Part shown: positions 6,779-30,326 of the stretch, piece by piece
Position numbering within the stretch: the stretch's first letter is position 1
How the letters are laid out: the number at the start of each line of letters is the position of its first letter
Source of the DNA: an uncultured virus (IMG/VR IMGVR_UViG_3300034018_000714)
Taxonomy: Duplodnaviria; Heunggongvirae; Uroviricota; Caudoviricetes
Direction: 5' to 3' (one strand)
IMG/VR virus record: IMGVR_UViG_3300034018_000714
Length of the DNA stretch: 30,326 nucleotides
Notes under the pieces: model-generated
What the model was told of the DNA's origin: nothing
Seen by the model: the letters and a program-made list of their open reading frames with translations, nothing else
The model's database searches: none
Position numbers and translations under genes: made by a program

Positions 6779-6780
6779 CC

Positions 6781-7059: not shown

Positions 7060-7198
7060 GAACCCTCGGTCTCGGTCTCGTACACAGCAACGCTATGCAC
7101 GAAAGAAAGCCGTTGCTCAAGCCGCTCGCCCTGTCCAGCCAACAGGTAATGGTCAGGGTGGATTCTTAGGTGGTTTTGGCGCTGGAGGTATGATGTGA
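7049..7198 (+). CDS. small basic Arg/Gly-rich protein
   Basis: MATKNPRSRSRTQQRYARKK; GTGA coupling to next gene. Confidence 0.5.
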   Translation: MATKNPRSRSRTQQRYARKKAVAQAARPVQPTGNGQGGFLGGFGAGGMM

Positions 7199-7692: not shown

Positions 7693-7710
7693 ATAAAGTA
7701 AAATATTTGT

Positions 7711-8139: not shown

Positions 8140-8146
8140 GTTTCTA

Positions 8147-8449
8147 ATGGCACATAATCACCGCATGCAGGGGATCGCAGATCCTTACATCAACCAGCGC
8201 AATGAGATGCTTGCTCGTGAGCAGGAAACACGCTCCCGTATGCAGATGCCTCATGCAAGCGAGGGATACGCAAGTCTTGAAGGTCGCAGTCAAATGCAAG
8301 ACCCTTATGATGACGAGAACGAAGGCTACAACACAACTGACGAAGACCTCATGCCAGGTTCTGGTGCACCCATTAACCCAGCAGTCCGTGCTTACCAAGA
8401 ATCAGGTCATGGCGTCCAAGTGATCAACCCAATGGATGATAAGTACTAA
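8147..8449 (+). CDS. hypothetical protein, MAHNHRMQ paralog 1
   Basis: N-terminal 23 aa similar to next gene. Confidence 0.7.
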   Translation: MAHNHRMQGIADPYINQRNEMLAREQETRSRMQMPHASEGYASLEGRSQMQDPYDDENEGYNTTDEDLMPGSGAPINPAVRAYQESGHGVQVINPMDDKY

Positions 8450-8712
8450 TGGCACACAATCACCGTATGCAAGAAATTGCAGAACCTTGGATTAATCGCC
8501 GTAACGAGTACATCGCACAGCAAGAAATGCTTGCACAGCGCAGTGCTGGTCTTATGGGCGTTAACTATGACCCAGAAGAAGCAGGGTATGACGAGGCATA
8601 CGGTCCACAGGATCGTACCCGCAAGGCTCTTGACACACGCTTGGACAAGCCGTCAGAATATGGTATCGCAGAAGAGCGCATGCAAGACCGCAAAGGTCAA
8701 GGAGAAAACTAA
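8449..8712 (+). CDS. hypothetical protein, MAHNHRMQ paralog 2
   Basis: TAATG coupling; shared N-terminus with synonymous codon differences. Confidence 0.7.
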   Translation: MAHNHRMQEIAEPWINRRNEYIAQQEMLAQRSAGLMGVNYDPEEAGYDEAYGPQDRTRKALDTRLDKPSEYGIAEERMQDRKGQGEN

Positions 8713-8740
8713 GATGGCTCGTGGAGAAAATACCGCAAAT
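8692..8740 (+). repeat. 49-bp exact direct repeat, copy 1
   Basis: AAAGGTCAAGGAGAAAACTAAGATGGCTCGTGGAGAAAATACCGCAAAT. Confidence 0.95.
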
Positions 8741-8932
8741 CACCCCAACCGTATGGTTAGTCTAGAAAACTTTGCACAAGTTGCACGCCTTGGTCGTGAA
8801 TTGTCCAAAGGGTTTCCACAAATGAGTGATGATGCCCCTGCTGGTGGTATCCCTCGTCCCAAAATGCATTCATGTGGGGGCTGTGGAGAAATGACCTCCA
8901 CAGAACACGGTGTCTGCGCCGATTGTAAGTAA
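8714..8932 (+). CDS. hypothetical protein, MARGENTAN paralog 1, C-terminal Zn finger
   Basis: AAGGAG RBS; CGGC...CADC. Confidence 0.7.
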   Translation: MARGENTANHPNRMVSLENFAQVARLGRELSKGFPQMSDDAPAGGIPRPKMHSCGGCGEMTSTEHGVCADCK

Positions 8933-8979
8933 AGGTCAAGGAGAAAACTAAGATGGCTCGTGGAGAAAATACCGCAAAT
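8931..8979 (+). repeat. 49-bp exact direct repeat, copy 2
   Basis: Identical to 8692-8740. Confidence 0.95.
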
Positions 8980-9129
8980 AATCCGAACCGCCGTGTAGGT
9001 CGTGAAAAACAATACCCCTCACAACAGGGCGCCCAGCGTATTGGTGAGGAATTGTGGGGTCTTGTCGCACCAGACATGGACCTTGCGAGTGCCTTAAGTA
9101 AGCGCAAGAAGCAGTCCAAGAAAAAATAA
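8953..9129 (+). CDS. hypothetical protein, MARGENTAN paralog 2 (58 aa, basic tail)
   Basis: Same RBS and first 9 codons as 8714 gene; TAATG coupling to next; missing from ORF track. Confidence 0.7.
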   Translation: MARGENTANNPNRRVGREKQYPSQQGAQRIGEELWGLVAPDMDLASALSKRKKQSKKK

Positions 9130-9437
9130 TGGCTCAGTACCCCTCTAAGCCATGGCAGTCACGACAAGAGATGCTCGTAGACATGGCTCTACAGAGTGCG
9201 ATCTCTACACCCGAACAGATTCGGGCGATTCGTCCTGTGGTGCCACAACAATTGTTTCCAGAGTCTAGAGGAATGCTTAAGCAAGAGATGGGCGTAGCAG
9301 ATGCACTTACTATTGATCGCAATTTTCCGACATATCGTTCGTGGGTTTCGGGAGCCCCTGTGATGTTCCGTAATGGTTTCATCGCAGATGAGTTCTCTGG
9401 GTCTTCACGCTACTCAATGCAAAGTTTGTCAATCTAA
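9129..9437 (+). CDS. hypothetical protein
   Basis: Coupled start and stop. Confidence 0.65.
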   Translation: MAQYPSKPWQSRQEMLVDMALQSAISTPEQIRAIRPVVPQQLFPESRGMLKQEMGVADALTIDRNFPTYRSWVSGAPVMFRNGFIADEFSGSSRYSMQSLSI

Positions 9438-9763
9438 TGCCTAGTTATCAACAAGGAATACAACCACCTACCAGTCTAGGGTTTCAACCAAAAAAGTGGA
9501 AAGAACCCGAAACCCCTGCCATCAAGAGCGTGGTATGGAAATCACCAAGTGTTGGAGCCACCCGTGACTACGGCAGTACACCTAGCGAAGTGGCTACCAT
9601 GCCACATCGTTGGGTATACCCTGAAAAACAATTGTCAAAGAGAAAAAAAGAAGACGAAGAGGAAGGTCCAGCGACTGGTTCTTCGGGTAGCCGAACAATG
9701 CAGCGTGGTAGAGCAATCTACGATGCCTACAGAACCTACAGAGGATCTAGAACAACTCCCTAG
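9437..9763 (+). CDS. hypothetical protein
   Basis: TAATG coupling. Confidence 0.6.
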   Translation: MPSYQQGIQPPTSLGFQPKKWKEPETPAIKSVVWKSPSVGATRDYGSTPSEVATMPHRWVYPEKQLSKRKKEDEEEGPATGSSGSRTMQRGRAIYDAYRTYRGSRTTP

Positions 9764-9822
9764 ATTCTGTCCCTTGATAACTGGTAAAATAGTAAGCACA
9801 ACGATTTAACCTAAGGAACACT

Positions 9823-10029
9823 ATGGCAGTTAATGACTCTAGATCAATGAACCGTGACCTGCGTCTTGGCGCTACTGACGGTAAGTTCAAGTCCCTCACA
9901 CCAGACCGTGGTGGTGAGGTTGACCCCACCCATGCAACAAAGCGCATGCACGAAGTATCGGCTACCTACCCAACAGGTGAGCAGTACAGCATCATTGATC
10001 GTCACCCACTGGCTGATTCGGGTATCTAA
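9823..10029 (+). CDS. hypothetical protein
   Basis: AAGGA RBS; upstream TAAAAT at 9785. Confidence 0.65.
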   Translation: MAVNDSRSMNRDLRLGATDGKFKSLTPDRGGEVDPTHATKRMHEVSATYPTGEQYSIIDRHPLADSGI

Positions 10030-10244
10030 TGGCGAACATGTACCCTTGGCTTGAGTCCTATGGTCACCCAAGTAAAGACATCAAGATTGACCACCATGTA
10101 AGCGGTCAGAAGTCTTCTGTTTACAAGCGCAACCTTCACTACGGTACATTCCACGGACCAGATGCTCCTGTCAATGCACGAAACATGGCACACATCATCC
10201 ACAATGATGAGTCTGTTCGTGCAGACAATTCACCTATCGTCTAA
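10029..10244 (+). CDS. hypothetical His-rich protein
   Basis: TAATG coupling. Confidence 0.6.
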   Translation: MANMYPWLESYGHPSKDIKIDHHVSGQKSSVYKRNLHYGTFHGPDAPVNARNMAHIIHNDESVRADNSPIV

Positions 10245-10294
10245 CCTACATAAACATGTGCTAGGCTTCTTAGAAACTATCTAAGGAGTACCAA

Positions 10295-10762
10295 ATGGCA
10301 GAGACAGGTTTTGACCGTATTCTTATTTGTAAGACACACGGCGTTATGTACAAGATGCGTCCCTATGACGGACCTGCTGAGTACGACCAAGAACTAATTG
10401 AACTTTGTAATAGGCACAATGGTCAGGTACAAGATCCTGACAACTGCCGTGCACTTATCTACCGTGTTGACCCAGATACAGCCAGCAAACTGGATGTTGA
10501 AACGGCGCTCAAAGGTGAATTAGCAGAACAAGATGTCTACATCCGTGAGACACGAGACGACCTAAAGGTTCAGGCTCTCAAGTGCTTTAACCAGCACAAT
10601 CGTCCAGAAGGTGGTTGCCCTGACTGGTGTGATGAATCCAAGACCATCGGACGCAAGACTGGTGTACCGCCAGAACATCGTCAGTACATCTGTATGTATT
10701 GCCCAGTAGGTGCATGGGTTGCTCACCAAGAGCGCAAAGAGATGGGTCTTTACGGCAAGTGA
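10295..10762 (+). CDS. hypothetical Cys/His-rich (probable Zn-binding) protein
   Basis: AAGGAG RBS; CKTH, CNRH, CFNQH..CPDWC, CMYCP. Confidence 0.75.
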   Translation: MAETGFDRILICKTHGVMYKMRPYDGPAEYDQELIELCNRHNGQVQDPDNCRALIYRVDPDTASKLDVETALKGELAEQDVYIRETRDDLKVQALKCFNQHNRPEGGCPDWCDESKTIGRKTGVPPEHRQYICMYCPVGAWVAHQERKEMGLYGK

Positions 10763-11235
10763 TTGTCTTTGGCTTTGATGTTCTTGCACACCCAGGTGAT
10801 GAACTAGGAGCAAGACAGCCCACCCGTGAGGGACGACAACTTTGGAACATGATGTTCTCAAAGTACGAAGGACGCATCTGTGTGCTTGCACACGGAATTG
10901 AAGACAATAAAACACCTATACTAATGGAATGGCTCAAAAAAGAGGGCTACAAGGCAGGAGCGATTGACCTAACTTATGAAATATCTCCCGATGCCAAACT
11001 GGAGCGTGTTCGTGGTATCCAAGCAGGATACGGAAGAATTGACTGGTTCGTTGACAGCGATCCAGCCACCGTTACTAGAGTCATTCACGAAGGAATTGCA
11101 TCCCTCCTCGTCACAATTCCAAGTATCCCTAGACCTGAATGGGTTGAAGGACGAACCATCAGAGGATGGGACGAACTCTCTCAAGAACTTGACGCCCAAG
11201 CACTTGCCAAAGCAGAACGATCATGGAAGGATTGA
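10759..11235 (+). CDS. HAD-fold-like hypothetical protein
   Basis: GTGA coupling; N-terminal IVFGFDVL and WFVDSDP resemble degenerate HAD motifs I and IV. Confidence 0.55.
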   Translation: MIVFGFDVLAHPGDELGARQPTREGRQLWNMMFSKYEGRICVLAHGIEDNKTPILMEWLKKEGYKAGAIDLTYEISPDAKLERVRGIQAGYGRIDWFVDSDPATVTRVIHEGIASLLVTIPSIPRPEWVEGRTIRGWDELSQELDAQALAKAERSWKD

Positions 11236-11239
11236 TGAC

Positions 11240-11494
11240 ATGACAGACATGAACAACCTTGACATTGATTTTGATGAGTGGATGGAGTACGGCATTAAAA
11301 AGGGCTTCTGTGGTCCAGCCGTGTGCTACACCCATGATGGACTTCCTATGTCCGATGAAGAGTGGATGGAAGAAGAAGCCAGTGGTGAGCCTCCCTGCAT
11401 GCATATCATCCGCCTTTACGAGGACGATGTGCAGAAAAAGCAAATTGAAGACATGCACGCACCATCCGTGTGGCGAAACCATTATCGGGACTGA
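11240..11494 (+). CDS. hypothetical acidic Cys/His protein
   Basis: GFCGPAVCYTHDGLP...PCMHIIRLY. Confidence 0.65.
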   Translation: MTDMNNLDIDFDEWMEYGIKKGFCGPAVCYTHDGLPMSDEEWMEEEASGEPPCMHIIRLYEDDVQKKQIEDMHAPSVWRNHYRD

Positions 11495-11500
11495 GGTGCC

Positions 11501-11680
11501 GTGGCTGTTAAAAACTCTTTTGCTAATCAGGTTCGTATTGCCTTAATCGTTGCTAAGTCATTGCTTAAAAAAGCAACAGAGACTAATGAGATTTCACGAG
11601 AACAAAGTGAACTTGTGCAAGAGCATCTCAACTCTGCGTACACAATAATTAAACAAGTGTTGAGCAAGGAAACCGATTGA
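11501..11680 (+). CDS. hypothetical protein (59 aa)
   Basis: GAGG-GTG start; TTGA overlap with next gene; missing from ORF track. Confidence 0.55.
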   Translation: MAVKNSFANQVRIALIVAKSLLKKATETNEISREQSELVQEHLNSAYTIIKQVLSKETD

Positions 11681-13113
11681 AAGTCTTTTTTGGTGGAGCC
11701 GAGAAGGGCTCTTACCGCTCCATCCTCTTAAGCGCAGGTGTTACCAGATTTGGTATCAACTTAACCCACTACGCTGTTCCTAAGAAGAAACTGCTTGATC
11801 TTGCAACGGTGTATCAGGGGAACGACATCATCCTGTATGTCTCAGAGAATGATGAAGACTTGGCTCGCTATGATTCATTTGTGCGTGAGCACATTGATAG
11901 TTTGACCTATGTGATTGGACGACCCGATTACGATGGCGCATGGATGGGTGAAAAATATGTACCTATCTGGAATGACCCTGATGACTTAGAGCGTCTCCAA
12001 TGGCTGTGTCAGAAGTATGGTCGTGTGGCTGTCAGTGATCGTGCCATCACAGGCAAAACCATCAACCGAATTGGTCAGATCGCTACACGATGGTCAACCC
12101 AATTAATTGGTCTTACCTCTAAACCAGATGTCATTGAGAAGATCAACTGGGAGTCCGTTGTAGTCGTCTCATGGTCTAGCGCACTGCGCTACGGAGAGAC
12201 TCAGGTGTGGGATGGGCACGCACTGCACCGCTACCCCGCACAACAAAAAGAGAGCGCACGCAAGAGACACCGCAACGACATCCAGCGTCTTGGTGTGGAC
12301 TACAACGCCGTCCTTGAAGATGAAGTAAACGCTGTGGCACACCTTGCTATCCAATCGTGGAGAGCATGGGAAACTAAAAACTTTGGGGGCTATGACCTTA
12401 TGAATGTTGATGACGAAGAAGAGTTCACACTCACTGATGACAATCAAATCATAATGATTTCAGGGGATACCCCAAACCCCCAAAGTGTGGCACCGAGGGG
12501 TACAAACATTGTTCCACAGGTACCTAATAAGCGGCACGAAGGCAAAAGAACATTGCTCCCTGTTATGGGCATTGACACCATCACATCAATGGGCTCACAA
12601 ACCCTTGATAATGAAGGGGAATCTATTGAAGTAGACCCTGAACAAGTGTCTATTTTGAAGTACAACGCAGACCCTTTGAGGCAGTGCAATCATTGTTACT
12701 TGGCAAGTCGTTGTCCACAATTTGAGGAAAATAGTGAGTGTGCGTTTTCTTTGCCCATTGAGATCCGCACAAAGGATCAGTTGAACTCTGCAATGCGTGC
12801 TCTGGTAGAGATGCAAGTGGGTCGTGTGATGTTCGCAAGGTTCGCTGAAGAACTAGAAGGTCAAGGTATTGACACCACACTCTCCGTTGAGATGGATCGT
12901 GTCTTCACCATGATTGAGAAGTTAAAGAGCATCTCCGATACACGAGACACAGTGAGTTTTACGATGGAAGCAAAGGGCACCAGCGGTGTTCTTTCTCGCT
13001 TGTTCGGCGCCAAGGCAGGGGAGCAGGCACGCCAGTTGCCTAATGGTGGCTATGACGAGATTGCTACCAACAACATGTATGCAGATATCATTGACATGTC
13101 TGAAGAGGGTTGA
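11677..13113 (+). CDS. large hypothetical protein; possible TGT/DpdA-like N-domain plus Cys-cluster C-domain
   Basis: AAGGA-TTG start; VPIWN..D, GL and SWSSALRYG motifs; QCNHCYLASRCPQFEENSEC cluster. Confidence 0.6.
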   Translation: MKVFFGGAEKGSYRSILLSAGVTRFGINLTHYAVPKKKLLDLATVYQGNDIILYVSENDEDLARYDSFVREHIDSLTYVIGRPDYDGAWMGEKYVPIWNDPDDLERLQWLCQKYGRVAVSDRAITGKTINRIGQIATRWSTQLIGLTSKPDVIEKINWESVVVVSWSSALRYGETQVWDGHALHRYPAQQKESARKRHRNDIQRLGVDYNAVLEDEVNAVAHLAIQSWRAWETKNFGGYDLMNVDDEEEFTLTDDNQIIMISGDTPNPQSVAPRGTNIVPQVPNKRHEGKRTLLPVMGIDTITSMGSQTLDNEGESIEVDPEQVSILKYNADPLRQCNHCYLASRCPQFEENSECAFSLPIEIRTKDQLNSAMRALVEMQVGRVMFARFAEELEGQGIDTTLSVEMDRVFTMIEKLKSISDTRDTVSFTMEAKGTSGVLSRLFGAKAGEQARQLPNGGYDEIATNNMYADIIDMSEEG

Positions 13114-13139
13114 CAAGGCTAATAGCACACCTGTACACT
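13110..13139 (+). promoter_or_regulatory. sigma70/SigA-type promoter
   Basis: TTGACA-18 nt-TACACT upstream of GAAGGA-ATG 13166. Confidence 0.7.
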
Positions 13140-13165
13140 TCCACGCAAATCGGAAGGACACCATC

Positions 13166-13453
13166 ATGGATTATGAAAAACTGTCAAAAGGCTATTACGA
13201 ACAGCGCCAGAAGAACAGCCTAGAGGAACACTTGAAGTACCAGAAGTCTCTTGAGAAGTTCCCCAATGGCTACGAGAACAAGAGAGAAGAATCCCCAGCG
13301 CCTGTAGAGGTTGACTACAGCATTGTCAGGATGCCTGATGGTGGATATGTAGTTGCTCGTTCACGAAATCTCGGTTCTTTGGATTATGACTTTGTATGTT
13401 CATGCTCCAGTCGCCATGAGGCTCATGAGATCGTAAAGGCTCTCAGCAAGTGA
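13166..13453 (+). CDS. hypothetical protein
   Basis: RBS plus ATG 13166; GTGA coupling to next gene. Confidence 0.65.
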   Translation: MDYEKLSKGYYEQRQKNSLEEHLKYQKSLEKFPNGYENKREESPAPVEVDYSIVRMPDGGYVVARSRNLGSLDYDFVCSCSSRHEAHEIVKALSK

Positions 13454-14052
13454 TTACAGATGTTGCTATTGATGTAGACGGGGTGTTGTTTGACTTTGCT
13501 GGTGTTGTCACCAAGCATTTTTCTGATTACTTCGGAACAGAACTTCCAGCGCCAAAGAACTGGGAGTTCTTTGAAGAGTGGGGTCTTTCAGCAGAAGCCT
13601 TCTACACACTTCTTGACCATCTCACCGTTGAAAGAGAGATTTTTAATGAAGGCTCACCAATACCTAAAACCATGGTTGGATGGCAAGCAATGCGGGAACA
13701 AGGACTGCGGTTGCATGTCATCACCCACAGATCATGGTCAGCCCATGCCCAAACCATCCAGTGGCTTGAGCGATACCGACTCATCCCAGACAGTCTCCAC
13801 TTCACAGGAGACAAAGCCCCAGTCTTAGCGTCTATCGCAAGCGATGAGTTTGCAGCCATTGATGACCACTACGACCAGTATGCCCACTACAAGGCATACG
13901 ACACCAAGGCTTTCTTATTCACACAGCCATGGAATGCTGGACACCCAGGTCGCCGTGTTTCTAATCTCGTAGAGTTTGCCGATGCAATCAAGTTGTACAA
14001 CCAATACTGGTCAGCGGAGAACGCTTACACATTGATGGATCAGGTGTTCTGA
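13450..14052 (+). CDS. HAD-superfamily 5'(3')-deoxyribonucleotidase-like phosphatase
   Basis: IDVDGVL motif I, VITHR motif II, GDK, AIDD motif IV, QPWN. Confidence 0.85.
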   Translation: MITDVAIDVDGVLFDFAGVVTKHFSDYFGTELPAPKNWEFFEEWGLSAEAFYTLLDHLTVEREIFNEGSPIPKTMVGWQAMREQGLRLHVITHRSWSAHAQTIQWLERYRLIPDSLHFTGDKAPVLASIASDEFAAIDDHYDQYAHYKAYDTKAFLFTQPWNAGHPGRRVSNLVEFADAIKLYNQYWSAENAYTLMDQVF

Positions 14053-14429
14053 TGTCTGAGAATTATCGTTCAAAGATTCTGATGGACGCTGTTGAAATTA
14101 TTAACGGCGCTCGCAACAACGACTACGGAGATCCAGTAGACGACTTCAGCACCACAGCGGAGTTTTGGCAGACATACCTTGACCGAACAATGAAGGCTCG
14201 CAAGGGTCTTGATCTTCGTGCACACGATGTTGCTGTCATGATGATGCTTCTGAAGATCGCTCGCATCTCATGGACTCCTGAGAAGGAAGACCATTGGATG
14301 GACATCGCTGGCTATGACGGCTGCGGATGGGACTGCGTAGTCCGTCAGGATGACCTGACCGAGCCACAATGCGAGTACTGCCTCAACGGCTGGGCATGTG
14401 ACTGCGGTCAGGCTAACCCCGACTTCTGA
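14052..14429 (+). CDS. DUF6378-like protein
   Basis: A.EIING.RN.DYGDP..F...A.FW..YL..DVA.MM.LLK.AR...D.W.DIAGY. Confidence 0.8.
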   Translation: MSENYRSKILMDAVEIINGARNNDYGDPVDDFSTTAEFWQTYLDRTMKARKGLDLRAHDVAVMMMLLKIARISWTPEKEDHWMDIAGYDGCGWDCVVRQDDLTEPQCEYCLNGWACDCGQANPDF

Positions 14430-14431
14430 TG

Positions 14432-14800
14432 TCAGCGCAAGAAGGGCTTAGATTGTTTGACCGACCGAGCGACTTCTACAAGGCTCTCATCAATACGACC
14501 GACCATGAGTTCGGCGTCCAAACGAGACTTGTCAATCTTCTCAACGATGATTCGCTTCCACTGAGCAGGCTTGAGAAGTTCCTTCAAGACATCCTCGTTC
14601 CAAACAACTGTGTTGCTCTGGATGAGGTTGACCTTGCCGAGTTCTGTCTCAGCCTTAGTGAGACCTGCTTGGTTGAGTTCGCTAATGACCACTGCATCAA
14701 GATCCTTGAGGCGCTCTGTGAGCGTGTCAAGTTCAGCCTTGAGACGAATGCGTTCGTTAACGAGGGTGGATAGGGACTGGGTATTTGTGTTGGTTGTCAT
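14432..14800 (-). CDS. coiled-coil phage protein (Gam/Gp157-like, tentative)
   Basis: N-terminal heptads, VVWNEDVLKELL..IDKSRL; lone - strand gene in + block. Confidence 0.65.
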   Translation of the reverse strand: MTTNTNTQSLSTLVNERIRLKAELDTLTERLKDLDAVVISELNQAGLTKAETELGKVNLIQSNTVVWNEDVLKELLKPAQWKRIIVEKIDKSRLDAELMVGRIDESLVEVARSVKQSKPFLR

Positions 14801-14821
14801 GGTTTGCACCTTATCTGCTAG

Positions 14822-14838
14822 GTGTGTCAAAGACACAC
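14822..14838. promoter_or_regulatory. perfect inverted repeat (operator-like) between divergent genes
   Basis: GTGTGTC-AAA-GACACAC, overlapping a - strand TTGACA. Confidence 0.45.
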
Positions 14839-14860
14839 TGATTTATTAATTGGAGACTGT

Positions 14861-15265
14861 ATGGAAGAAGAATGGCGCCTAAAGGCTCTATGCCACAAGA
14901 GGAACAACGAGTTTTGGTTCCCACCCATGGAGGCGGATGCACCAGAGCAGTACTACTCCATAGCGAGGGAGATATGTCGTTGCTGTCCCTTGTGGGAGAA
15001 GTGTCTAAAAGACGGTTTAAACGAGAAATGGGGCATGTGGGGAGGACTCACACCCAAAGACCGCCAGCCCATTAAGGACGGCAAGCAGTCCCTTCTGAAG
15101 GCTCATGGCTCATGGGTTAGGTACCGACAGGGTTGTCGGTGTGATCTGTGTACAGAGGCTCACATTGAAAGTTTGAAGAATGTGAAGTTGAATATGAATG
15201 TTATTCCGTACATGAATGAGCCCGTAGGAGATTTGTCATCAGTTAGGTATGACATGATGGGATAA
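14861..15265 (+). CDS. whiB: WhiB-family transcription factor with extra C-terminal Zn-finger-like motif
   Basis: W...A.C...FFP-like, C..CP....C, GMWGGLT..DR; HG....Y..GCRC..C. Confidence 0.9.
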   Translation: MEEEWRLKALCHKRNNEFWFPPMEADAPEQYYSIAREICRCCPLWEKCLKDGLNEKWGMWGGLTPKDRQPIKDGKQSLLKAHGSWVRYRQGCRCDLCTEAHIESLKNVKLNMNVIPYMNEPVGDLSSVRYDMMG

Positions 15266-15286
15266 CCACCCTGTAAACTGGATACA

Positions 15287-15345
15287 GAAGCCCATACCAA
15301 GGATTTACCCCCTGAGACACCCGTGTCTCTCTTGGTGTGGGCTTC
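15287..15345 (+). promoter_or_regulatory. structured 5' leader upstream of rpf
   Basis: 15-bp stem GAAGCCCATACCAAG/CTTGGTGTGGGCTTC enclosing GAGACA-CCCG-TGTCTC; TAAACT at 15274-15279. Confidence 0.6.
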
Positions 15346-15375
15346 GTGCTTTATCCGCCTACAGAGGAGTACACC

Positions 15376-15945
15376 TTGTTGTTAGCACGCATTGGCTTAG
15401 TCGCCACACTTTCATTTCCATTAGGGATGCATGGAGCATCGGCACAAGGAGTGGAGGTGACGACTACAACCACTGTGGCTACGCCTGTGCACAGCACAAG
15501 CATCAACACGATGCATCCTGAACTACGGGCGCAACTAAAGACACGCAAAGTAGGATCAGTTCGTTTCTGGGAAGCAGTCTCATGGTGTGAGACCAACCAC
15601 AAGTGGAATGACGGTGGCTACTACGCAGGCGGTCTTGGTATCGCTCAGAGCGCATGGCGTGGATTCGGTGGCTGGCAGTTTGCAACTTCACCAAAGAACG
15701 CAACCAAAGAAGAGCAAATTATTGTTGCCAACAGAATCTCGTTCCTCGGATTCCAGACCAAGAATGTGTTCAGAACACTTGATGACAAGTTGAACAACAA
15801 GCCTTTCTTCCGACCAGCAATCGGCTGGCGCAGTTCAAAGAACTGGGGCAAGAATTGTATTAACTGGGAGACACGCAAACCATTGCGTGACCGCTACACA
15901 GAAGCAGGTATGGCGGAGTGGAAGAAGACTCGCCCCCAGCCATGA
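15376..15945 (+). CDS. resuscitation-promoting-factor (Rpf)-like transglycosylase with signal peptide
   Basis: GAGGAG-TTG start; WEAVSWCET...YAGGLGI..SAW..FGG...ATKEEQI.VA.RI with catalytic Glu; hydrophobic N-terminus ending ASA. Confidence 0.85.
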   Translation: MLLARIGLVATLSFPLGMHGASAQGVEVTTTTTVATPVHSTSINTMHPELRAQLKTRKVGSVRFWEAVSWCETNHKWNDGGYYAGGLGIAQSAWRGFGGWQFATSPKNATKEEQIIVANRISFLGFQTKNVFRTLDDKLNNKPFFRPAIGWRSSKNWGKNCINWETRKPLRDRYTEAGMAEWKKTRPQP

Positions 15946-16163
15946 GTAGGTGCATACCCGTTGAAGACATCTTAGGAACCTCAGAGGTTGCTGAGGTGCT
16001 CGGTGTCAGCAAGCAACGCATTCACTCACTGCGTCAGATGAATGAGTTCCCAGAGCCTGTGGTGCAGTTAGCATCCACTCCTTTGTGGGATCGTAAAGAT
16101 GTTGTATCATTTTTGGCAATATGGAAACCATGGAAGGTAATCAACAATGAGTTACAGATATGA
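15942..16163 (+). CDS. AlpA/excisionase-like HTH DNA-binding protein
   Basis: LGTSEVAEVLGVSKQRI...FPEPV..L...PLW. Confidence 0.8.
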   Translation: MSRCIPVEDILGTSEVAEVLGVSKQRIHSLRQMNEFPEPVVQLASTPLWDRKDVVSFLAIWKPWKVINNELQI

Positions 16164-16302
16164 ATGTCCATCGTGCAAGGTTGCCATGAGTACGAATCTC
16201 TCACTATCAACTCCGCCAGTGCACAAGTGCCAGAAGAAAGCCAACAGGGTGATCCCGTTGGAACTGGTAGAGAAGACAAAAGAAGAGCCCCCCACCGAAT
16301 AG
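16147..16302 (+). CDS. small zinc-ribbon-like protein (51 aa)
   Basis: YRYECPSC...PVHKC; missing from ORF track. Confidence 0.5.
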   Translation: MSYRYECPSCKVAMSTNLSLSTPPVHKCQKKANRVIPLELVEKTKEEPPTE

Positions 16303-16317
16303 GCAGGGGGCTTCTTC
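16282..16317. terminator. hairpin at convergence of + and - gene blocks (probable terminator)
   Basis: GAAGAGCCCCC...GGGGGCTTCTTC with pyrimidine-rich tails on both strands. Confidence 0.6.
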
Positions 16318-16328
16318 ATTGTTGGTTG

Positions 16329-16706
16329 CTACTCCACGCTGTCGGGGAATGGGAACTTGCGAGGACTGTTCGTAGAGACGAAGAAGTCAACACCACCCCA
16401 CACACCGTTACGCATGTCGTTCTGCTTTGCAAAGTTAAAACACTCTTTACGAACGGTGCATTGAGAGCAGAGAGCCTGAGCCTGAGCCACCATCATCGCA
16501 CGAGTGTTGTTGCGCTGTGCATTCTCGGTGAAGAAGATGGGAGTCATCTCAGACTGTCCCTTGCACTTGGCATGATCCCTCCATCGTCCATCATCCTCAA
16601 ACTTGAGGCTAGGAAGTTCAATGAAGTTGGTTGTGTCGTAATCCGTCAGGCGTACACGGCGGACGACAGGGGGCTTGACGCCCCCTGCCTCTGTAACCGC
16701 ATCCAT
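16329..16706 (-). CDS. whiB: WhiB-family transcription factor
   Basis: WRDHAKC..IFF..A.ALCSQCTVRKEC...GVWGG. Confidence 0.9.
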   Translation of the reverse strand: MDAVTEAGGVKPPVVRRVRLTDYDTTNFIELPSLKFEDDGRWRDHAKCKGQSEMTPIFFTENAQRNNTRAMMVAQAQALCSQCTVRKECFNFAKQNDMRNGVWGGVDFFVSTNSPRKFPFPDSVE

Positions 16707-17728
16707 CAGGCGAACACCAACTGCTTGATGGCGTCCAAGACCACACGGTCTTGCTCACCAGTCTTGCCAGTGATGCCATTGAGCATGTTGCGCTCAACAC
16801 GGGAGTTGTCAGCGCCTGCGTAGTGGTGCTGGTAGGTGTTCCAGCACTGGAGGACTCCAAGCGCAGTGCCTCGCCAAGGAGAGACCATTGGGTCACTCTT
16901 GTAGAGTTGGTGCAGGAGTTCCTGCTTGTTCTCAGCACGAGCCTTGACCTGAGGACGGATGTCCAAGTCAGTTGACAATGGCACGAGGCGCTCCACGATG
17001 GCTTTGAACTCGTTCTCGGTCACCTGCTGTGTGGAGAGGCGCTCAAGTTCAAGCATGATGTCGTCTGTGTACTCATGGATGAGACCAAGAGCGTCACGGA
17101 CTGTCTGCAACTTGCCGATGGAGTGCTTGCTGTGGCGCACCTTGTGCTTGGCTGTCTTCTCACCGAGGGCACCAGCGAGCGTGTTATCACACACGACCAC
17201 AGTGGACACCAACTGGAAGGTTGATGACAGGGTGCCGTCATGGCTGGTGCAGGCAAGGAGGTGAGGACGGATGTCAAAGCCTGATGGCGTTTTGATCGTC
17301 TCAGGCAATTCCACTTGCACATACGCCTTGCCACCTTGACGAAGGAGACCAGCACCGCCGATGGCGAGGTCGTTGTCGTCAACGAGGTTTGCAACGGTGT
17401 CAAGGAGCCACTTCTTGTACTGGTGAACTTGGTAGGAGGACTTGAAGATGTTGAACACCGTGTTGTCATCCGAGCGGACGATTGCCTTGCGAGCCTTGTC
17501 TTCTTTGTAGTGGATGCCACCACCTGCTGGCATTCCTACGAACACTGGAGCCTCAATGGCTGTCCAGTTGAAGAGACGGCGGAGGACATCATCCACAGGA
17601 ATCGCTCCCGTGTAGTGGTTGGGCTCGGCACCTTGTGATGACTCCTTGTAATGCCACGCATTACCTCGCTGTTCGCTGAATCCAACAAGGATGTTGGTGT
17701 TGAGCCATTCGGTAGTTTCTCTTGACAT
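16706..17728 (-). CDS. DUF932-family phage/plasmid protein
   Basis: KAIVRSD, AGLLRQG, LLACTSHDG, VVVCDNTL, VRHS. Confidence 0.85.
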   Translation of the reverse strand: MSRETTEWLNTNILVGFSEQRGNAWHYKESSQGAEPNHYTGAIPVDDVLRRLFNWTAIEAPVFVGMPAGGGIHYKEDKARKAIVRSDDNTVFNIFKSSYQVHQYKKWLLDTVANLVDDNDLAIGGAGLLRQGGKAYVQVELPETIKTPSGFDIRPHLLACTSHDGTLSSTFQLVSTVVVCDNTLAGALGEKTAKHKVRHSKHSIGKLQTVRDALGLIHEYTDDIMLELERLSTQQVTENEFKAIVERLVPLSTDLDIRPQVKARAENKQELLHQLYKSDPMVSPWRGTALGVLQCWNTYQHHYAGADNSRVERNMLNGITGKTGEQDRVVLDAIKQLVFA

Positions 17729-20379: not shown

Positions 20380-20474
20380 GGGCTGTGCCCTCAGAGTGCA
20401 TGGAGAAACAAAGGAGATAAGAACCCCATGCACCCTGAGCGCACCAGCGGTGTATTGTCACCGCTGAAGCGCCC
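20380..20474 (-). ncRNA. three-way-junction RNA-like element, copy 1
   Basis: GGGC / CAGCGGTG-loop-CACCGCTG / TGCGCTCAGGGTGCATGG...CCATGCACTCTGAGGGCA / GCCC. Confidence 0.6.
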
Positions 20475-22178: not shown

Positions 22179-22259
22179 GGACTGCGTCCCATGAGCACTG
22201 CGAGGTGTCCCGACCCCACAGTGCTCGTGGCACGCCACGGGGTTGCCCCCGTGACGCCC
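22179..22259 (-). ncRNA. three-way-junction RNA-like element, copy 2
   Basis: GGGC / TCACGGGG-GCAA-CCCCGTGG / CGTGCCACGAGCACTG...CAGTGCTCATGGGACG / GTCC. Confidence 0.6.
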
Positions 22260-23852: not shown

Positions 23853-23933
23853 GAGCGATGCTATCGCTCTCACTACCTATTCACACTTTATGAATAGGCA
23901 CTGAGAGCGCCACCGCCGAAGCGGTGACACCTC
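23853..23933 (-). ncRNA. three-way-junction RNA-like element, copy 3
   Basis: GGTG / TCACCGC-TTCG-GCGGTGG / CGCTCTCA-GTGCCTATTCA...TGAATAGGTAG-TGAGAGCG / CATC. Confidence 0.6.
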
Positions 23934-25738: not shown

Positions 25739-26071
25739 TCAGCCGTACACGAGTTCGTTGAAGAATGCGTACTGCCAAATGGCATCGTGGTCAGTGTGGT
25801 CGGTACCGCACTCCTTGAGGTCGTCCCAGTCACCACCGTTTTGAATCCACAGTGCGATGCCCCTGAGGCAGGACTCCGTGTCAAAGTTGTAGCGGTAACC
25901 GTTGTTGATGAGGTAGGTCTCACCCTCAATGTCGGTGTGCACTTCGTACTCGTCATCAGCCACCCAGTAGCGACAGCCGTCAGAGGACTTGATGTAGTCA
26001 ATGACCTCATCGCTCACCATGAGGGTGTACGAGATGGTCAGTGGGTGGCGTGTGTTGGTTGCTGTGCTCAT
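25739..26071 (-). CDS. hypothetical phage protein
   Basis: AAGGAG RBS; YW...D..D.DAI.QYA.F.E.VYG C-terminus. Confidence 0.75.
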   Translation of the reverse strand: MSTATNTRHPLTISYTLMVSDEVIDYIKSSDGCRYWVADDEYEVHTDIEGETYLINNGYRYNFDTESCLRGIALWIQNGGDWDDLKECGTDHTDHDAIWQYAFFNELVYG

Positions 26072-26355
26072 TTGTTGTTCTCCTTGTTGATGGTTTCAAT
26101 TTGTTTGATGGTGAGTTGGTTGTCCATGTCAATGATGGAATAGCGAATCTTCCATCCTTGCTTCTCAATGTGACGCATGCGCTTGTCCATGGCGTCAACG
26201 CTCACGGAGTTACCGAAGCGTTTCCATGGCTCGCTCGCATCCTTGCGCCAGTACGAGACGACACGCTTCGCATGGCGCCCCGTGGTCACACCCTTGAACG
26301 GCTGTAGGACGCCGTCAGGGTCAGTGAAGGTTGGGTATGTCTCAAGTGTTGTCAT
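26068..26355 (-). CDS. hypothetical protein
   Basis: AAGGAGG RBS before ATG 26355. Confidence 0.65.
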   Translation of the reverse strand: MTTLETYPTFTDPDGVLQPFKGVTTGRHAKRVVSYWRKDASEPWKRFGNSVSVDAMDKRMRHIEKQGWKIRYSIIDMDNQLTIKQIETINKENNK

Positions 26356-26365
26356 TGGCGCCTCC

Positions 26366-26911
26366 TTAAGCGTTGACTTCTGATTGTTGCAATTTGTTGA
26401 TGACCGCCTCAAGCATGAGGTTCATCCAGTACTTGTCATTGAGGTGGAATGGTTTGACCTCAAATGACTCACCGAGGAATGCGTTGAGGGTTGACACCTT
26501 GCGCTCCAGTTCGTGGTGCTCTGCCAACTTGCGCTGAATGAGGCGCTCAGTCTTCAGCAACTCGTACTGGAGGAAGTTGTCCATGGTCAGCAGGACAGCC
26601 TTGCCCAACTCATCGTCATAGCGATGCACGGGGTTCGCAATCTGACTGGGCAAGAACGACTCGGTGTAGGTGCTATCCACGATGCGGTCAGGCTGTGCTG
26701 GGATCAATTCACCGTCATAACCAGTGTGCTCGCCTTGAGCAGACTTGAAGAAGACACGGACAACGGTGACCGTCTTCATCGTCTTGCGCTGTGAGCCGTA
26801 GGTACGGCGCTCACCGAATCCAGTGATGCGGTAGTAGCCGTTGTGGTTGTTGACCTCAAACAGCGTGTTCGGGTCATTCGCTACAGCGAGGGTGATGTCT
26901 AGAAGTTTCAT
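26366..26911 (-). CDS. hypothetical protein
   Basis: AAGGAG RBS before ATG 26911. Confidence 0.7.
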   Translation of the reverse strand: MKLLDITLAVANDPNTLFEVNNHNGYYRITGFGERRTYGSQRKTMKTVTVVRVFFKSAQGEHTGYDGELIPAQPDRIVDSTYTESFLPSQIANPVHRYDDELGKAVLLTMDNFLQYELLKTERLIQRKLAEHHELERKVSTLNAFLGESFEVKPFHLNDKYWMNLMLEAVINKLQQSEVNA

Positions 26912-26931
26912 TGGTGCTCCTTGTTGATAGT

Positions 26932-27009
26932 GGGCGATTGCCCTCAGAAGACACCGACCGAAGCCGATGTCCTCTGAGGACACCACAGGCTGGGGGAGCC
27001 TGTGATGCC
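26932..27009 (-). ncRNA. three-way-junction RNA-like element, copy 4
   Basis: GGC / TCACAGGCT-CCCCC-AGCCTGTGG / TGTCCTCAGAGGACATCGG-CTTCGG-TCGGTGTCTTCTGAGGGCA / GCC. Confidence 0.65.
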
Positions 27010-27020
27010 TTGGGGGTCAG

Positions 27021-27191
27021 TTACAGATACACGGTGATGGCTCGGTCAACCTCCCCGATTTCCCAGTGGTGGTTGTTCGTCTCTTCAGGGTCAAAGTCAC
27101 GAGCGATGGCGACTGCCTGCTCCTGTGACTCAGCCTCCACCACTGCGGTGTATGTCTGCCCGATGATTACTTGAACTTCGTATTTTGCCAT
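27021..27191 (-). CDS. small hypothetical protein (DpnD/PcfM-like)
   Basis: AAGGAGG RBS; KYEVQV...YTAVVEAESQEQAVAIA. Confidence 0.7.
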   Translation of the reverse strand: MAKYEVQVIIGQTYTAVVEAESQEQAVAIARDFDPEETNNHHWEIGEVDRAITVYL

Positions 27192-27204
27192 TGTGTGTGC
27201 CTCC

Positions 27205-27507
27205 TTAGGCGTTGGTTGATGGGTCGGTGAGTAGGTCGTCATTGATGGTCTTCTGCAACTTGCGAGCCCAACGCTCAACCTTCTTGCTGAGTTCGTTGGT
27301 GTCCGTGAATCGGAATGGGTAACTGGTGTGCTGGAACCAGTCACCATCGTGCACATAGTGCTCGCTCAGGTCGTTGTCATCGTCCGTGTAGAACGGTGTG
27401 TCCAGCAACTGCTCAAGTGACTCAAGGTCACTGGCGATGCGGAGCGCAGTGGTCACCAAACGGTGGCGCAGGCGCTGTTCCTTGGTCATGTCTTCTGTGA
27501 TGTTCAT
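27205..27507 (-). CDS. hypothetical protein
   Basis: ATGA coupling with upstream gene. Confidence 0.65.
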   Translation of the reverse strand: MNITEDMTKEQRLRHRLVTTALRIASDLESLEQLLDTPFYTDDDNDLSEHYVHDGDWFQHTSYPFRFTDTNELSKKVERWARKLQKTINDDLLTDPSTNA

Positions 27508-27773
27508 TGGGTTACTTCTTTCTTGTTGTTGATTGCTGTGAGCCACTCGGTCTCGGTCACTGTCTGACCGTTCACGATGTAAAAGGCGTTGGTGACTTGA
27601 CCGTCAATGACAGGCGCCAGTTGGTAGACATGGGCGTTGTTCTCTTCCTCCATGTGCTGGGCAATCCATTGCTCGGCAAGGAATGCGTTGTCATGGTAGG
27701 TAGTGACTTGTGCTGTGCAGTCACCCTTGCGGATGCCAGCCACTCTGACTCGTGTTTCTGTTGGTGTTTCCAT
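27504..27773 (-). CDS. hypothetical protein
   Basis: AAGGAG RBS before ATG 27773. Confidence 0.65.
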   Translation of the reverse strand: METPTETRVRVAGIRKGDCTAQVTTYHDNAFLAEQWIAQHMEEENNAHVYQLAPVIDGQVTNAFYIVNGQTVTETEWLTAINNKKEVTQ

Positions 27774-27792
27774 TGTTGTTCTCCTTGGTTGT

Positions 27793-28335
27793 TCAGAATG
27801 GGTAGAGGTCATCGTTGACCCAGTAGCGGTTGTTCGGAATCTGTGGCTGAGCGTTGCTGTCGCCACGCTGACGCAGTCGCATCGTGACGCAGGCGTCCAC
27901 CAGTTCTCGGTATGCCTGCTCAGTGGTCGGTACGAATGGAATCTCTTGGCGATACTCAAGGTCTCCAGCGTTCAGCAACCACAGTGGCAACTCAAGGCGA
28001 CCATTGTGTTCTGCCCAGTGCCACAAGGCATCCCAGCCCTGCGATGAGCCGATTGGCATCTCGCCACCCTTGTTGTCACCGTCACACCAGTTCGCACTGT
28101 CACCGACCCACACTGACAAGCCCCTGCCCTTCTTGTCGGTCACAAGAATCGGCAACGCAGTGCCTGCCCACTTGCGGTCAATGTTGGCGTCAAGGCGAGC
28201 GCAGTACTTCTCAAACTTCTCGCTCGGTGACCATGAGTACTTGTATCGGAACTCAACGACACCGATGTCACCGAAGACATCGGACAGTTCCTTGATTCGC
28301 TTGGTCTTCGTAATTGCGTATTGGTAAACGCCCAT
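27793..28335 (-). CDS. hypothetical protein
   Basis: AAGGAG RBS. Confidence 0.7.
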   Translation of the reverse strand: MGVYQYAITKTKRIKELSDVFGDIGVVEFRYKYSWSPSEKFEKYCARLDANIDRKWAGTALPILVTDKKGRGLSVWVGDSANWCDGDNKGGEMPIGSSQGWDALWHWAEHNGRLELPLWLLNAGDLEYRQEIPFVPTTEQAYRELVDACVTMRLRQRGDSNAQPQIPNNRYWVNDDLYPF

Positions 28336-28354
28336 TGTGGTTCTCCTTTGTTGT

Positions 28355-28428
28355 GGACAATGTCCTCACCATGCACCGACCGAAGCCGATGCACAGTGAG
28401 GACACCAGCGCCGTGAGGCGCTGATGCC
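28355..28428 (-). ncRNA. three-way-junction RNA-like element, copy 5
   Basis: GGCA / TCAGCGCC-TCAC-GGCGCTGG / TGTCCTCACTGTGCATCGG-CTTCGG-TCGGTGCATGGTGAGGACA / TGTC. Confidence 0.65.
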
Positions 28429-28451
28429 GAGTTGATCAATTTGTGTGTGTG

Positions 28452-28853
28452 TTACTTCTGAAAGTACGAATGAATCTCAACCATCCCAGCACCGACCAGC
28501 ACCTTGTTGGCGCTGGCAAGTGCAGTGCGACAGCCGTTGATGGTCTTCGTGATGTCAGGGTGATTATCACCCTCACGGCGCATCTCAATGTGATTCTCCA
28601 AGTAGTAAGCAACCTCACGAGCGAACGCTTCAACAGCGCCCAGCGTGAGGTGTGCCTCGTAAGTGCTTGAGGACTTGCGCTTGACAACGACTGATGCATT
28701 GTCAACCGCAATGGTTACCTCGTGAAGTTCAGGCTCTTCTGTTGGGTCAACTTGTGACTCAAGAATCGCTTGAAACTCACCTCGCACATGTGAGTTGAAT
28801 CGGACTGGATGGTGAATGGTCACTGTGCCGTCATCGTTCAGTGTGTAGTTCAT
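28452..28853 (-). CDS. hypothetical protein, first gene of the - strand block
   Basis: AAGGAG RBS before ATG 28853. Confidence 0.7.
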   Translation of the reverse strand: MNYTLNDDGTVTIHHPVRFNSHVRGEFQAILESQVDPTEEPELHEVTIAVDNASVVVKRKSSSTYEAHLTLGAVEAFAREVAYYLENHIEMRREGDNHPDITKTINGCRTALASANKVLVGAGMVEIHSYFQK

Positions 28854-28874
28854 GCGGTGCTCCTTGTTAAGGGG

Positions 28875-29047
28875 AACGGATTGTCCGTCCCCAGCACCCA
28901 TCAAACGAGTTGTTGCCAGACTCTGGCGTTCAATTACTTGCCTCCCAAGTGATGCGCCAGTTACTGGCAACAACTCTCATGGGGGAGGCTTCCATGCTGA
29001 TGAATGCTGGGCACGGAGCCGAGGGGCTTATGCCCCCCGACACCGTT
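28875..29047 (-). ncRNA. three-way-junction RNA-like element, copy 6 (expanded P3 arm)
   Basis: AACGG / TCGGGGGC-ATAA-GCCCCTCGG / TCCGTGCCCAGCATTCATC...GATGGGTGCTGGGGACGGA / CCGTT, with inner 13-bp stem GAGTTGTTGCCAG/CTGGCAACAACTC. Confidence 0.5.
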
Positions 29048-29910
29048 GCATGACCTGACCGCATCACCATGTGGGGGCTTTCCAATGACTTAGAGCCACA
29101 GCCAGCGCAAGCACTGACTGTTTTATCCCGATGATGCGGTATGCGAATCGTTTCCCCGTCATGGGTGAAGTTTGGCGCCAAACACTTTCGGTGTTTCAGT
29201 AACGCCAATTCATCTGTGTAGGTCACAGTGTTGCCACTGTCCGTTGGTAGTTAGTCCATAAAGCGACAATGTGTCGCACCGCTGAAGCCATCGCACCCTC
29301 GCACTCGTAACTGATTCGCCTACACCATTGCCTGTCCTGCAAAGGCTCCTTGGAGCAAGTGACCCACTAAGGGGTCAACGACCCACTATGGGGTCAACAC
29401 AATGCAGTGTCAGCGTTGGACTGGGCGTCAGTGGGTCATCTCGCAGTATCCGCACCATGTCGCCCGTAATCTCCGCACCGTGAGGTGAGAAGAATGCGAG
29501 CGCCAAATAGGTATGTGAGGACTTACGAGAGCCGAACGAATGCCAAATGAATCTTCTGATTCGCATATCTCTTGTAGATAGTTCGCCCAACTTCTTACTA
29601 ACTCATGTCCAGCAGGAAAGGCTTCGCAGGCTTGCGCCTCCACCATTCCTGCCTGTGCGCTTGGCGCATCTGAGTGTCTCCCAGCGAATGCGAGCCATGG
29701 GCTCTGCTGAGGAAGAACATCTTCGGAACTATCTGAAATTGTCAAGGGACGAACTGGATTCCATGAACCGTGGAGGCAACTGAATCTGAACTGCAATGCC
29801 CAAGGACTTAGGGCAGGACAGGAACAGGGCGCTATGGGAGTGGGCAAAGCCCAGCCATCAAGAACACGGCGGAATCTTCAGTTGGAAAAGAGCGCCCCGA
29901 AGGGCACAGC
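29048..29910 (-). ncRNA. candidate large structured non-coding RNA or long structured leader
   Basis: No credible CDS; nested long-range helices and UUCG/GNRA tetraloop hairpins on the - strand. Confidence 0.5.
29361..29398. repeat. tandem 19-bp repeat x2
   Basis: GACCCACTAAGGGGTCAAC / GACCCACTATGGGGTCAAC. Confidence 0.85.
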
Positions 29911-29913
29911 AAA

Positions 29914-29944
29914 AGTCTCCCACAAGGGGGGGGTGGTGTGTCAA
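29914..29944 (-). promoter_or_regulatory. possible promoter for the - strand block
   Basis: TTGACA-19 nt (contains C8 run)-GAGACT; AT-rich tract upstream; spacing and -10 are non-optimal. Confidence 0.4.
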
Positions 29945-30326
29945 TAGTTTTCAAACAATTTTTCTGATTTCTTTTGAGCCATATGTGGCAAGGGTCTGAG
30001 GGACAGAGGGCGCTGGAAAGGGCGCCCAAACCGTTCCTACGGGCTCTGAATGCCATTGAGGGGGACAGGGAAGGGAGGGGGGGAGAGAGGGGCTGAGAGG
30101 GGCTCTGAGTGGGGTCAGAGGGGATCAAATGTGTGTGGGCTGGGCTGGGGAATGATTGGTGCTTGGTGGGGTACCTGTGGGGGTATACCTGCCCCCCTCG
30201 CCCTCTCGTGTGTGCCCCCGATTCCATAGCCCCAGCCGTAGTGCATGACCATGCAGTCATTTATGCATAAAAAGTGATCAATTTTGGTGATTTCCCTTAC
30301 GCCACAAGGGTTTCCGCCGATGTATG

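Follow-up and report, generated by a model that had tools for sequence, protein, structure and literature searches.

A probable untranslated early-operon leader with a putative rRNA-operon-like opening in an uncultured lake phage

The DNA analysed here, IMG/VR record IMGVR_UViG_3300034018_000714 (30,326 nucleotides, hereafter the window), belongs to an uncultured lake-water phage of the Caudoviricetes. The 24 sequencing runs in which this stretch occurs are all from lake, freshwater or unspecified metagenomes. Scans against PHROGs and Pfam revealed a RecA/UvsX-like recombinase, a Cas4-type exonuclease, a DpdA-like transglycosylase, an SNF2 helicase, a DUF932 protein and an Rpf-type transglycosylase domain. 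Positions 1–16800 are filled with plus-strand genes, and a 12-kb minus-strand operon runs leftward from the ATG at 28853 down to 16706. Nearly every gene of the window is preceded by an AAGGAG ribosome-binding site. Of 14 control genomes, that of Corynebacterium glutamicum alone had the domain PF06737, which is present in the phage; together with the AAGGAG usage, this makes an actinobacterial host likely. Upstream of the minus-strand operon there is a single gene-free stretch, 29048–29910, which an earlier note, made from the sequence alone, had flagged as a densely structured non-coding region and a candidate large phage RNA. As that note stated, a promoter-like site precedes the stretch, which heads the leftward operon. 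It covers most of what we refer to as the leader, that is, the approximately 1,055 nt between 29908 and 28854 on the minus strand. We consider it moderately probable that the flagged stretch is a partly folded, untranslated leader of the early operon whose opening resembles that of ribosomal RNA (rrn) operons.

Upon scanning of viral-contig, metagenome and genome collections, the leader was found in only two further records. One of them, G001, is a 60-kb viral contig identical to the window from 28862 to ~30060, and the gene that follows its ribosome-binding site is unrelated. The likeness breaks off precisely where the first gene has its ribosome-binding site (28853–28870), and this has the appearance of a mosaic junction at a gene boundary. 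The other is an 83.6-kb contig, whose locus is called L005 below. Its helicase protein is 84% identical to that of the window and its genes are 71–93% identical in DNA. The leader of L005 is internal to the contig, in a 1.8-kb divergent intergenic region whose other side opens with a weakly ParB-like gene. Metagenome scans for further homologues of the leader gave no match, and neither did a blastn search (word size 11) of 28900–30326 against 50,697 phage records.

Our comparison with L005 showed that about 444 of the 1,055 nt of the leader (42%) can be aligned, and that near-identical blocks alternate with unrelated filler of variable length. The longest exact runs common to the two leaders are 85, 46, 43 and 43 nt. 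In four lake metagenome runs, represented by low-depth and near-identical fragments, only four positions of the leader vary, one of them in a loop, and these data are of no use for covariation. The variant in hairpin D (28883 G>A) falls in the loop, at the position where L005 also differs. In minus-strand order, with the first two elements kept in L005 on either side of a variable spacer, the features are as follows.

29939 to 29975, minus strand: promoter-like site, an A/T-rich upstream tract with the −35 hexamer TTGACA (29944–29939)
29914 to 29922, minus strand: candidate extended −10, TGnGAGACT, 19 nt after the −35 (18 nt in L005), kept within variable sequence
29892 to 29907, minus strand: P1, a hairpin with a UUCG cap where the transcript is predicted to begin, in a boxB-like position ~7 nt after the candidate −10
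29886 to 29894, minus strand: boxA-like CGCUCUUU(U), immediately following P1 and overlapping its 3′ arm
29735 to 29885, minus strand: conserved block A, ~150 nt, identical to L005 over stretches of 43 and 85 nt, with one 1-nt indel
29813 to 29822, minus strand: 5′ strand of helix H1, CCUGUCCUGC, inside block A, the perfect 10-bp complement of 29331–29340
29452 to 29734, minus strand: variable segment V1, ~283 nt against ~215 nt in L005, not alignable, holding open reading frames of 139 and 78 aa
29313 to 29451, minus strand: conserved block B, ~139 nt, identical to L005 over stretches of 43 and 46 nt, holding the 3′ strand of H1 (29331–29340)
29142 to 29312, minus strand: variable segment V2, not alignable with L005, folding z score 0.0 to −2.2
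29058 to 29140, minus strand: C1, a three-way-junction domain closed by the helix 29140–29130 / 29068–29058
29011 to 29049, minus strand: C2, a long G+C-rich hairpin with G-U pairs, its stem identical in L005 and its loop different
28907 to 28976, minus strand: 70-nt hairpin whose 22-nt arms are 86% complementary, common to the window and G001, cleanly absent from L005
28871 to 28892, minus strand: hairpin D, directly before the ribosome-binding site, kept in G001 and L005 though the downstream gene differs
28851 to 28865, minus strand: AAGGAG (28865–28860) and ATG (28853–28851) of the first early gene, where the likeness of window and G001 ends

The leader is non-coding. Stops occur in all six frames across the region and, in agreement with the earlier note, no open reading frame (ORF) in it has a usable AAGGAG: the sole internal copy (29351–29346) stands 3 nt from the TTG of a 39-aa ORF, which in L005 stops after six codons. 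When 20 window proteins were scanned against PHROGs and Pfam, none of the four ORFs in or beside the region matched a family. The longest ORFs of the region, one of 139 aa on the minus strand and two of 78 and 67 aa on the plus strand, are not conserved and are non-coding by codon usage. Codon-usage scores per codon were −0.25 to +0.03 for seven candidate ORFs, compared with 0.009 to 0.50 for 18 genes and a mean of −0.39 for off-frame controls. A 1-nt indel inside the most conserved block puts the 139-aa (minus) and the 67-aa (plus) ORFs out of frame in L005, and beyond the indel the corresponding L005 sequence is unrelated. No ORF on either strand is conserved or gene-like. A 349-aa open frame in L005 (4691–5740) was considered as a gene and rejected: it lengthens the first gene upstream by chance, and the added part is of low complexity and is interrupted by stops in the window.

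The folding of 29048–29910 was compared with that of shuffled sequences on both strands. The minus strand reached −329.7 kcal/mol with a z score of −4.63, and none of the 20 shuffles was as good, while the plus strand gave −1.46. The leader of L005 gave −4.73 in the sense and −3.13 in the antisense direction, and eight coding controls of 863 nt each from the window gave −0.4 to −3.14. In 150-nt segments, the core 29200–29900 scored between −2.1 and +0.6 on the minus strand, as ordinary sequence does. Strong local folding was found on the minus strand only at 29000–29200 (z −5.3 and −3.0) and, on both strands, at 28850–29050, which is outside the flagged coordinates; for 29000–29149, z was −5.3 on the minus strand and −0.6 on the plus strand. 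The excess stability is local, lying in the 5′ hairpin and in the 3′ double hairpin at 29140–29011. The description of the stretch as densely structured agrees with the global minus-strand fold, but not with the core, and was overstated.

Two helices, P1 and the closing helix of C1, keep their pairing between the window and L005 through compensatory changes. P1 (z −3.4 in the window, −3.1 in L005) has six pairs, two of which are changed on both sides and one on one side, with none broken. In the closing helix of C1, eight pairs are common with L005, of which four are identical, one is changed on one side and three on both sides, again with none broken. The C1 domain has a minimum free energy of −40.6 kcal/mol (z −4.69; −3.55 for its L005 counterpart), and in each case none of 200 shuffles was as good. 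C2 scored −3.96 in the window and −3.85 in L005, and hairpin D has kept its stem in L005, the loop alone being changed. Since C2, D and P1 contain G-U pairs and the plus strand of 29000–29149 is unfolded, these structures point to RNA on the minus strand rather than to DNA palindromes. The 70-nt hairpin at 28907–28976 (z −5.5 to −7.5, both strands) looks like an inserted element, because the window and G001 have it and L005 is cleanly without it.

The sequence features on which the earlier note relied are real. Its complementarities 29331–29340/29813–29822 (a perfect 10 bp), 29576–29584/29726–29734 (9 bp), 29051–29056/29220–29225 (6 bp) and 29827–29833/29891–29897 (7 bp) were all found, and that of 29058–29066 with 29132–29140 lengthens to 11 pairs (29140–29130 with 29068–29058). 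A 6-bp pairing placed at 29403–29408/29790–29795 exists with a shift of one base, at 29403–29408/29789–29794. The minus-strand tetraloop hairpins are also present (UUCG at 29907–29892, GCAA near 29634 and 29232, GAAA near 29188). In 29048–29910 we counted five perfect inverted repeats of 9 bp or longer, against 1.23 expected, and 5 of 300 dinucleotide shuffles reach this number; for those of at least 10 bp there are two against 0.29, reached by 7 of 300 shuffles. For H1 the predicted pair probability is 0.89 in the window and, with different intervening sequence, 0.74 in L005. Both of its strands are invariant, so that it has no covariation and is a potential pairing rather than a proven one. 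P1 and C1 have compensatory changes; the long-range helices of the earlier note are either invariant or in lineage-specific filler. Local folding of block A is unremarkable (z −1.9 and −0.1), and V1 gave minus-strand z scores of −0.2 to −1.5.

The TTGACA that was said to lie just upstream on the minus strand was found at 29944–29939. The 17-mer at this site, TTTGAAAACTATTGACA, is present once in the window and is identical in L005 amid varying flanks. The same 17-mer occurs in 12 unrelated viral contigs, and in two of them a TATAAT stands 17–18 nt downstream. We infer that the TTGACA site is a promoter, from which transcription would start near 29908 on the minus strand, and the leader is probably transcribed as an untranslated RNA.

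The predicted transcript would open with P1 and the boxA-like element. CGCUCUUU is kept in both lineages, and its continuation in L005 is UCUUUGAAA, as in the Bacillus subtilis consensus. The anti-termination mechanism of boxA and Nus factors is textbook knowledge for rRNA and lambda. BoxA is bound in single-stranded form, and with Nus factors on it the polymerase withstands Rho while transcribing long untranslated RNAs. The available portion of PMC2724277 gives the rrn boxA of Escherichia coli as UGCUCUUUA(ACA) and that of lambda as CGCUCUUA. The phage CGCUCUUU agrees with the rrn UGCUCUUUA at 7 of 9 positions and with the lambda CGCUCUUA at 7 of 8. In the B. subtilis rrn leader, according to the available portion of PMC13753749, a 5′ hairpin is followed at once by the boxA AUGAUCUUUGAAA; this hairpin-then-boxA order is described for the rrn operons of both species in the same portions (PMC13753749, PMC2724277). 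The accessible part of PMC5725501 has GYTCTTTAANA as a working boxA consensus of gamma-proteobacteria, and there and in that of PMC13753749 boxA is described as guarding further long untranslated transcripts besides rRNA.

Like an rrn leader, the phage leader has a strong promoter-like site with an A/T-rich tract, a small 5′ hairpin, the boxA-like CGCUCUUU and, probably, a long untranslated and structured RNA. Unlike an rrn leader, it heads protein-coding genes, its boxA-like element lies partly in a stem and, in the window lineage, departs from the consensus in its 3′ half, and no boxC was identified in it. Its CGCUCUU(A/U) near an early promoter and beside a small hairpin is also similar to lambda nutL and nutR, but here the hairpin comes before boxA, whereas in nut it comes after, and the phage is unrelated to the lambdoid phages. 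No N-like protein was identified in the phage, and no search aimed at one was made. Among the literature matches listed, there was none for rrn-type boxA leaders in non-lambdoid phages.

These features suggest the following course of events. Host RNA polymerase would start at the TTGACA promoter with its A/T-rich upstream tract, and the transcript would open with the small UUCG hairpin and then directly with the boxA-like CGCUCUUU, as in rRNA operons. The boxA-like signal would probably recruit the host anti-termination complex of NusB/S10 type, and the polymerase could thereby cross ~1 kb of untranslated RNA and the hairpins of the operon, with neither Rho nor hairpin terminators halting it. 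Such anti-termination would be needed for a 1-kb untranslated leader, given that the operon behind it spans 12 kb and has five or more long intergenic hairpins. The leader RNA itself would be partly folded, with the 5′ hairpin, a pairing of blocks A and B over 330–480 nt, the 3′ double hairpin and the hairpin before the ribosome-binding site, and the stretches between these parts would be lineage-specific filler.

Several observations weigh against this reading. The global z score of the leader is only ~1.5 units past that of the most structured coding control (−3.14), and the covariation is based on two independent lineages, the window and L005, with five compensatory pairs. The blocks are not uniquely conserved, since identical stretches as long as 101 nt are found in genes common to the window and L005. 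Blocks A and B do not fold locally, and the palindromes and the promoter-like match in block B would suit an operator acting at the DNA level. The candidate −10, GAGACT, is a poor match to the −10 consensus. As for boxA, the published sequences come from other organisms and may differ from that of the host. In the window, the 3′ half of the element (UUUUCCAAC, with the continuation UUCCAAC) fits no published consensus, and three of its nucleotides (more in L005) are inside the P1 stem. GCTCTTT occurs at chance frequency, with five copies in the window against 3.47 expected, and in a terminator scan P1 with its U-rich tail also fitted the terminator pattern. Taken together, the chance frequency of the heptamer, the unusual 3′ half, the part in the stem, the terminator-like pattern and a host boxA that may differ leave about an even chance that the boxA-like element works as a Nus anti-termination signal.

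That pattern could also mean that P1 is a promoter-proximal terminator or attenuator and that the rest is decayed or spacer DNA from mosaic recombination. The scan calls P1 terminator-like, a six-pair stem followed by TCTTTTCC; V1 and V2 are wholly different between the lineages, and the first gene has been swapped between the window and G001. We regard this explanation as very unlikely. The stem of P1 is stronger in L005, but only UUU follows it there; no other promoter is evident for the operon; and a spacer would not be expected to keep exact blocks of 43–85 nt, compensatory helices and as few as four variant positions per kilobase. In 26000–30326 as a whole, terminator-like sites number four against 3.7 expected. 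A DNA-level control region, in which the conserved blocks are promoters and operators for DNA-binding proteins of phage or host, RNA made from them would be functionless and its folding is incidental, is a better competitor, though still unlikely. Block B contains tandem palindromic hairpins TGACCC-N6-GGGTCA at 29361–29376 and 29380–29395, which could be a repressor operator that overlaps a second promoter. These two 16-bp palindromes, 19 bp apart, are absent elsewhere in the window; the 19-nt unit is duplicated in tandem in the window and present once in L005, and beside it is a promoter-like match, CTGACA-17-CATAGT, at 29413–29385 on the minus strand. Blocks A and B are conserved in sequence without local folding, and the analogous 1.36-kb divergent intergenic region of another locus, L036, consists of five GTGACGAACGTCAC-type palindromes beside a ParB-like gene, of which L005 has two. 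Against this, the folding at 29000–29200 is limited to one strand and involves G-U pairs, for which DNA sites would have no need; P1 and C1 show compensatory changes; about 1 kb far exceeds what a promoter and an operator require; and the palindromes are not dispersed as stoperator-type sites are.

The interpretation offered in the earlier note, a multi-domain RNA of the GOLLD/ROOL kind, was partly supported, and its observation as a whole was partly confirmed. In its full form, a discrete RNA of ~0.9–1 kb that is released from the early transcript and might act in trans, we find it rather unlikely. In its favour are the global z scores of about −4.6 to −4.7 in both lineages, the enrichment of inverted repeats, the nested 10-bp and 6-bp complementarity of blocks A and B, with high predicted pairing in both lineages in spite of different intervening sequence, and the conserved 3′ double hairpin, which could set a stable 3′ end. 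A precedent also exists in the Pleft leader of the mycobacteriophages L5, D29 and StarStuff, a gene-free stretch of ~500 nt between Pleft and the first early gene; according to the available portion of PMC5712189, its RNA is the most abundant RNA of infection and is stable, processed and toxic. The phage leader is similar to this Cluster A leader in lying gene-free between an early promoter-like site and the first leftward early gene and in having no conserved ORF, and the phylum of the host is probably the same, in view of PF06737 being in Corynebacterium alone among the 14 control genomes. It differs in having no sequence similarity to it (blastn of 28900–30326, 50,697 phage records), in being about twice as long and in showing no stoperator-type repressor sites; the architecture is the same, and the Pleft leader is the nearest functional analogue in the literature.

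With GOLLD and ROOL the leader shares a similar size class, a location in a phage and the lack of a protein match. Unlike them, it is an operon leader and not a free-standing gene, and most of its length is not conserved. In a cmscan of the whole window against Rfam at the gathering score there was no match to GOLLD, ROOL, group I/II introns, RNase P, tmRNA, OLE or HEARO, and ARAGORN found no tmRNA or tRNA; the earlier note had likewise recognised no core of an intron, tmRNA or RNase P. At E ≤ 10, 28800–30326 gave four matches, each to an unrelated animal or Streptomyces model and far short of the gathering score, and the L005 leader gave three of the same sort, none in common with the window. 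Other results also speak against a self-standing RNA. The 58% of the leader that cannot be aligned is unrelated, length-variable filler which folds no better than shuffled sequence; none of the long-range helices has covariation support, their sequence being either invariant or part of this filler; the terminator scan found no terminator-like site to mark an end ahead of the first gene; and across the viral, metagenome and genome collections there is only one diverged homologue.

Some other loci were examined as relatives of the leader and rejected. L008 and L011 share only a 20-mer with it, which lies there inside a membrane-protein ORF, and five bacterial matches to the same 20-mer have no flanking similarity; both were attributed to chance. 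Twelve of the 14 loci with the promoter 17-mer are unrelated. Relatives of the helicase (L003, L004, L006 and L007), the ParB-like gene (L036 and L037), the first gene (L038–L040) and a 180-aa gene (L044) either end before the leader or have another intergenic region. The leader was also considered as a miniature inverted-repeat transposable element (MITE) bounded by the 10-bp inverted repeat, but the repeats are inside the conserved blocks and not at the edges.

On the far side of the promoter-like site, 29900–30100 folds better than shuffled sequence on the plus strand (z −4.2 and −3.8) but not on the minus strand (z −1.6 and +0.1). This part includes a hairpin GGGCGC-N8-GCGCCC at ~30011–30030 and may belong to a divergent transcript. 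A low-complexity tract at 30060–30190, with a G-rich plus strand, a C-rich minus strand and repeated GAGGGGCT units, is upstream of the promoter-like site and is highly variable among the window, G001 and L005. At 30258–30271 there is a perfect 12-bp palindrome, TTTATGCATAAA, beside repeated GTGAT motifs, which may be an operator of a divergent promoter. The GTGACGAACGTCAC-type palindromes are located at 3115–3890 in L036 and at 3632–3671 in L005, next to the small weakly ParB-like gene, and look like operator or centromere-like sites; the corresponding part of the phage would be beyond the end of the window. The ends of the window (30326) and G001 are at most 10 bp apart. Past this point L005 goes on into divergent genes and metagenome contigs extend by at least 319 nt; either a break in the assembly or the end of a genome may lie here.

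The intergenic hairpins of the minus-strand operon, with arms of 18–23 nt, are at 20385–20444, 22184–22235, 23865–23909, 26939–26982 and 28361–28404, the last with a UUCG cap. They could be terminators, RNase III sites or stabilisers. The copies at 26939–26985 and 28361–28407 are 81% alike, and a single L005 site just behind the first gene aligns with both 28336–28428 (94.7%) and 26912–26985 (78%). Among the plus-strand genes, two pairs of gene starts are duplicated in tandem (8144–8508 and 8692–9008; 76% and 86% identity over 63 and 78 nt), which suggests a row of small paralogous genes. An 18-nt periodic repeat at 5748–5876, with five copies in G+C-rich coding sequence, probably belongs to a Gly/Ala-rich repeat protein. 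The 478-aa protein of 11677–13113 is similar to the queuine tRNA-ribosyltransferase of PHROGs (E 8e-36), is without a Pfam match, and may be a DpdA-type enzyme of 7-deazaguanine DNA modification.

Beyond a role in cis, the early-operon leader might be processed to a stable, self-standing RNA of ~0.9 kb that acts in trans, as the toxic Pleft RNA of L5-type phages does, in which the 10-bp helix would clamp blocks A and B and the 3′ double hairpin would protect the end. Such an RNA could, for example, sponge host NusB/S10 or another RNA-binding factor through its boxA-like head. We hold this to be distinctly improbable. If true, a sponge for NusB/S10 would shut down host rRNA synthesis while phage transcription continues, and a trans-acting RNA would represent a new class of large phage RNA for host take-over. 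Because phage genomes are tightly packed, a gene-free kilobase that heads an early operon and is near-invariant in a lake population is probably functional. If the rrn-like opening of the leader is functional, this uncultured phage, probably of a freshwater actinobacterium, would borrow the rRNA anti-termination of its host without an N-type protein.

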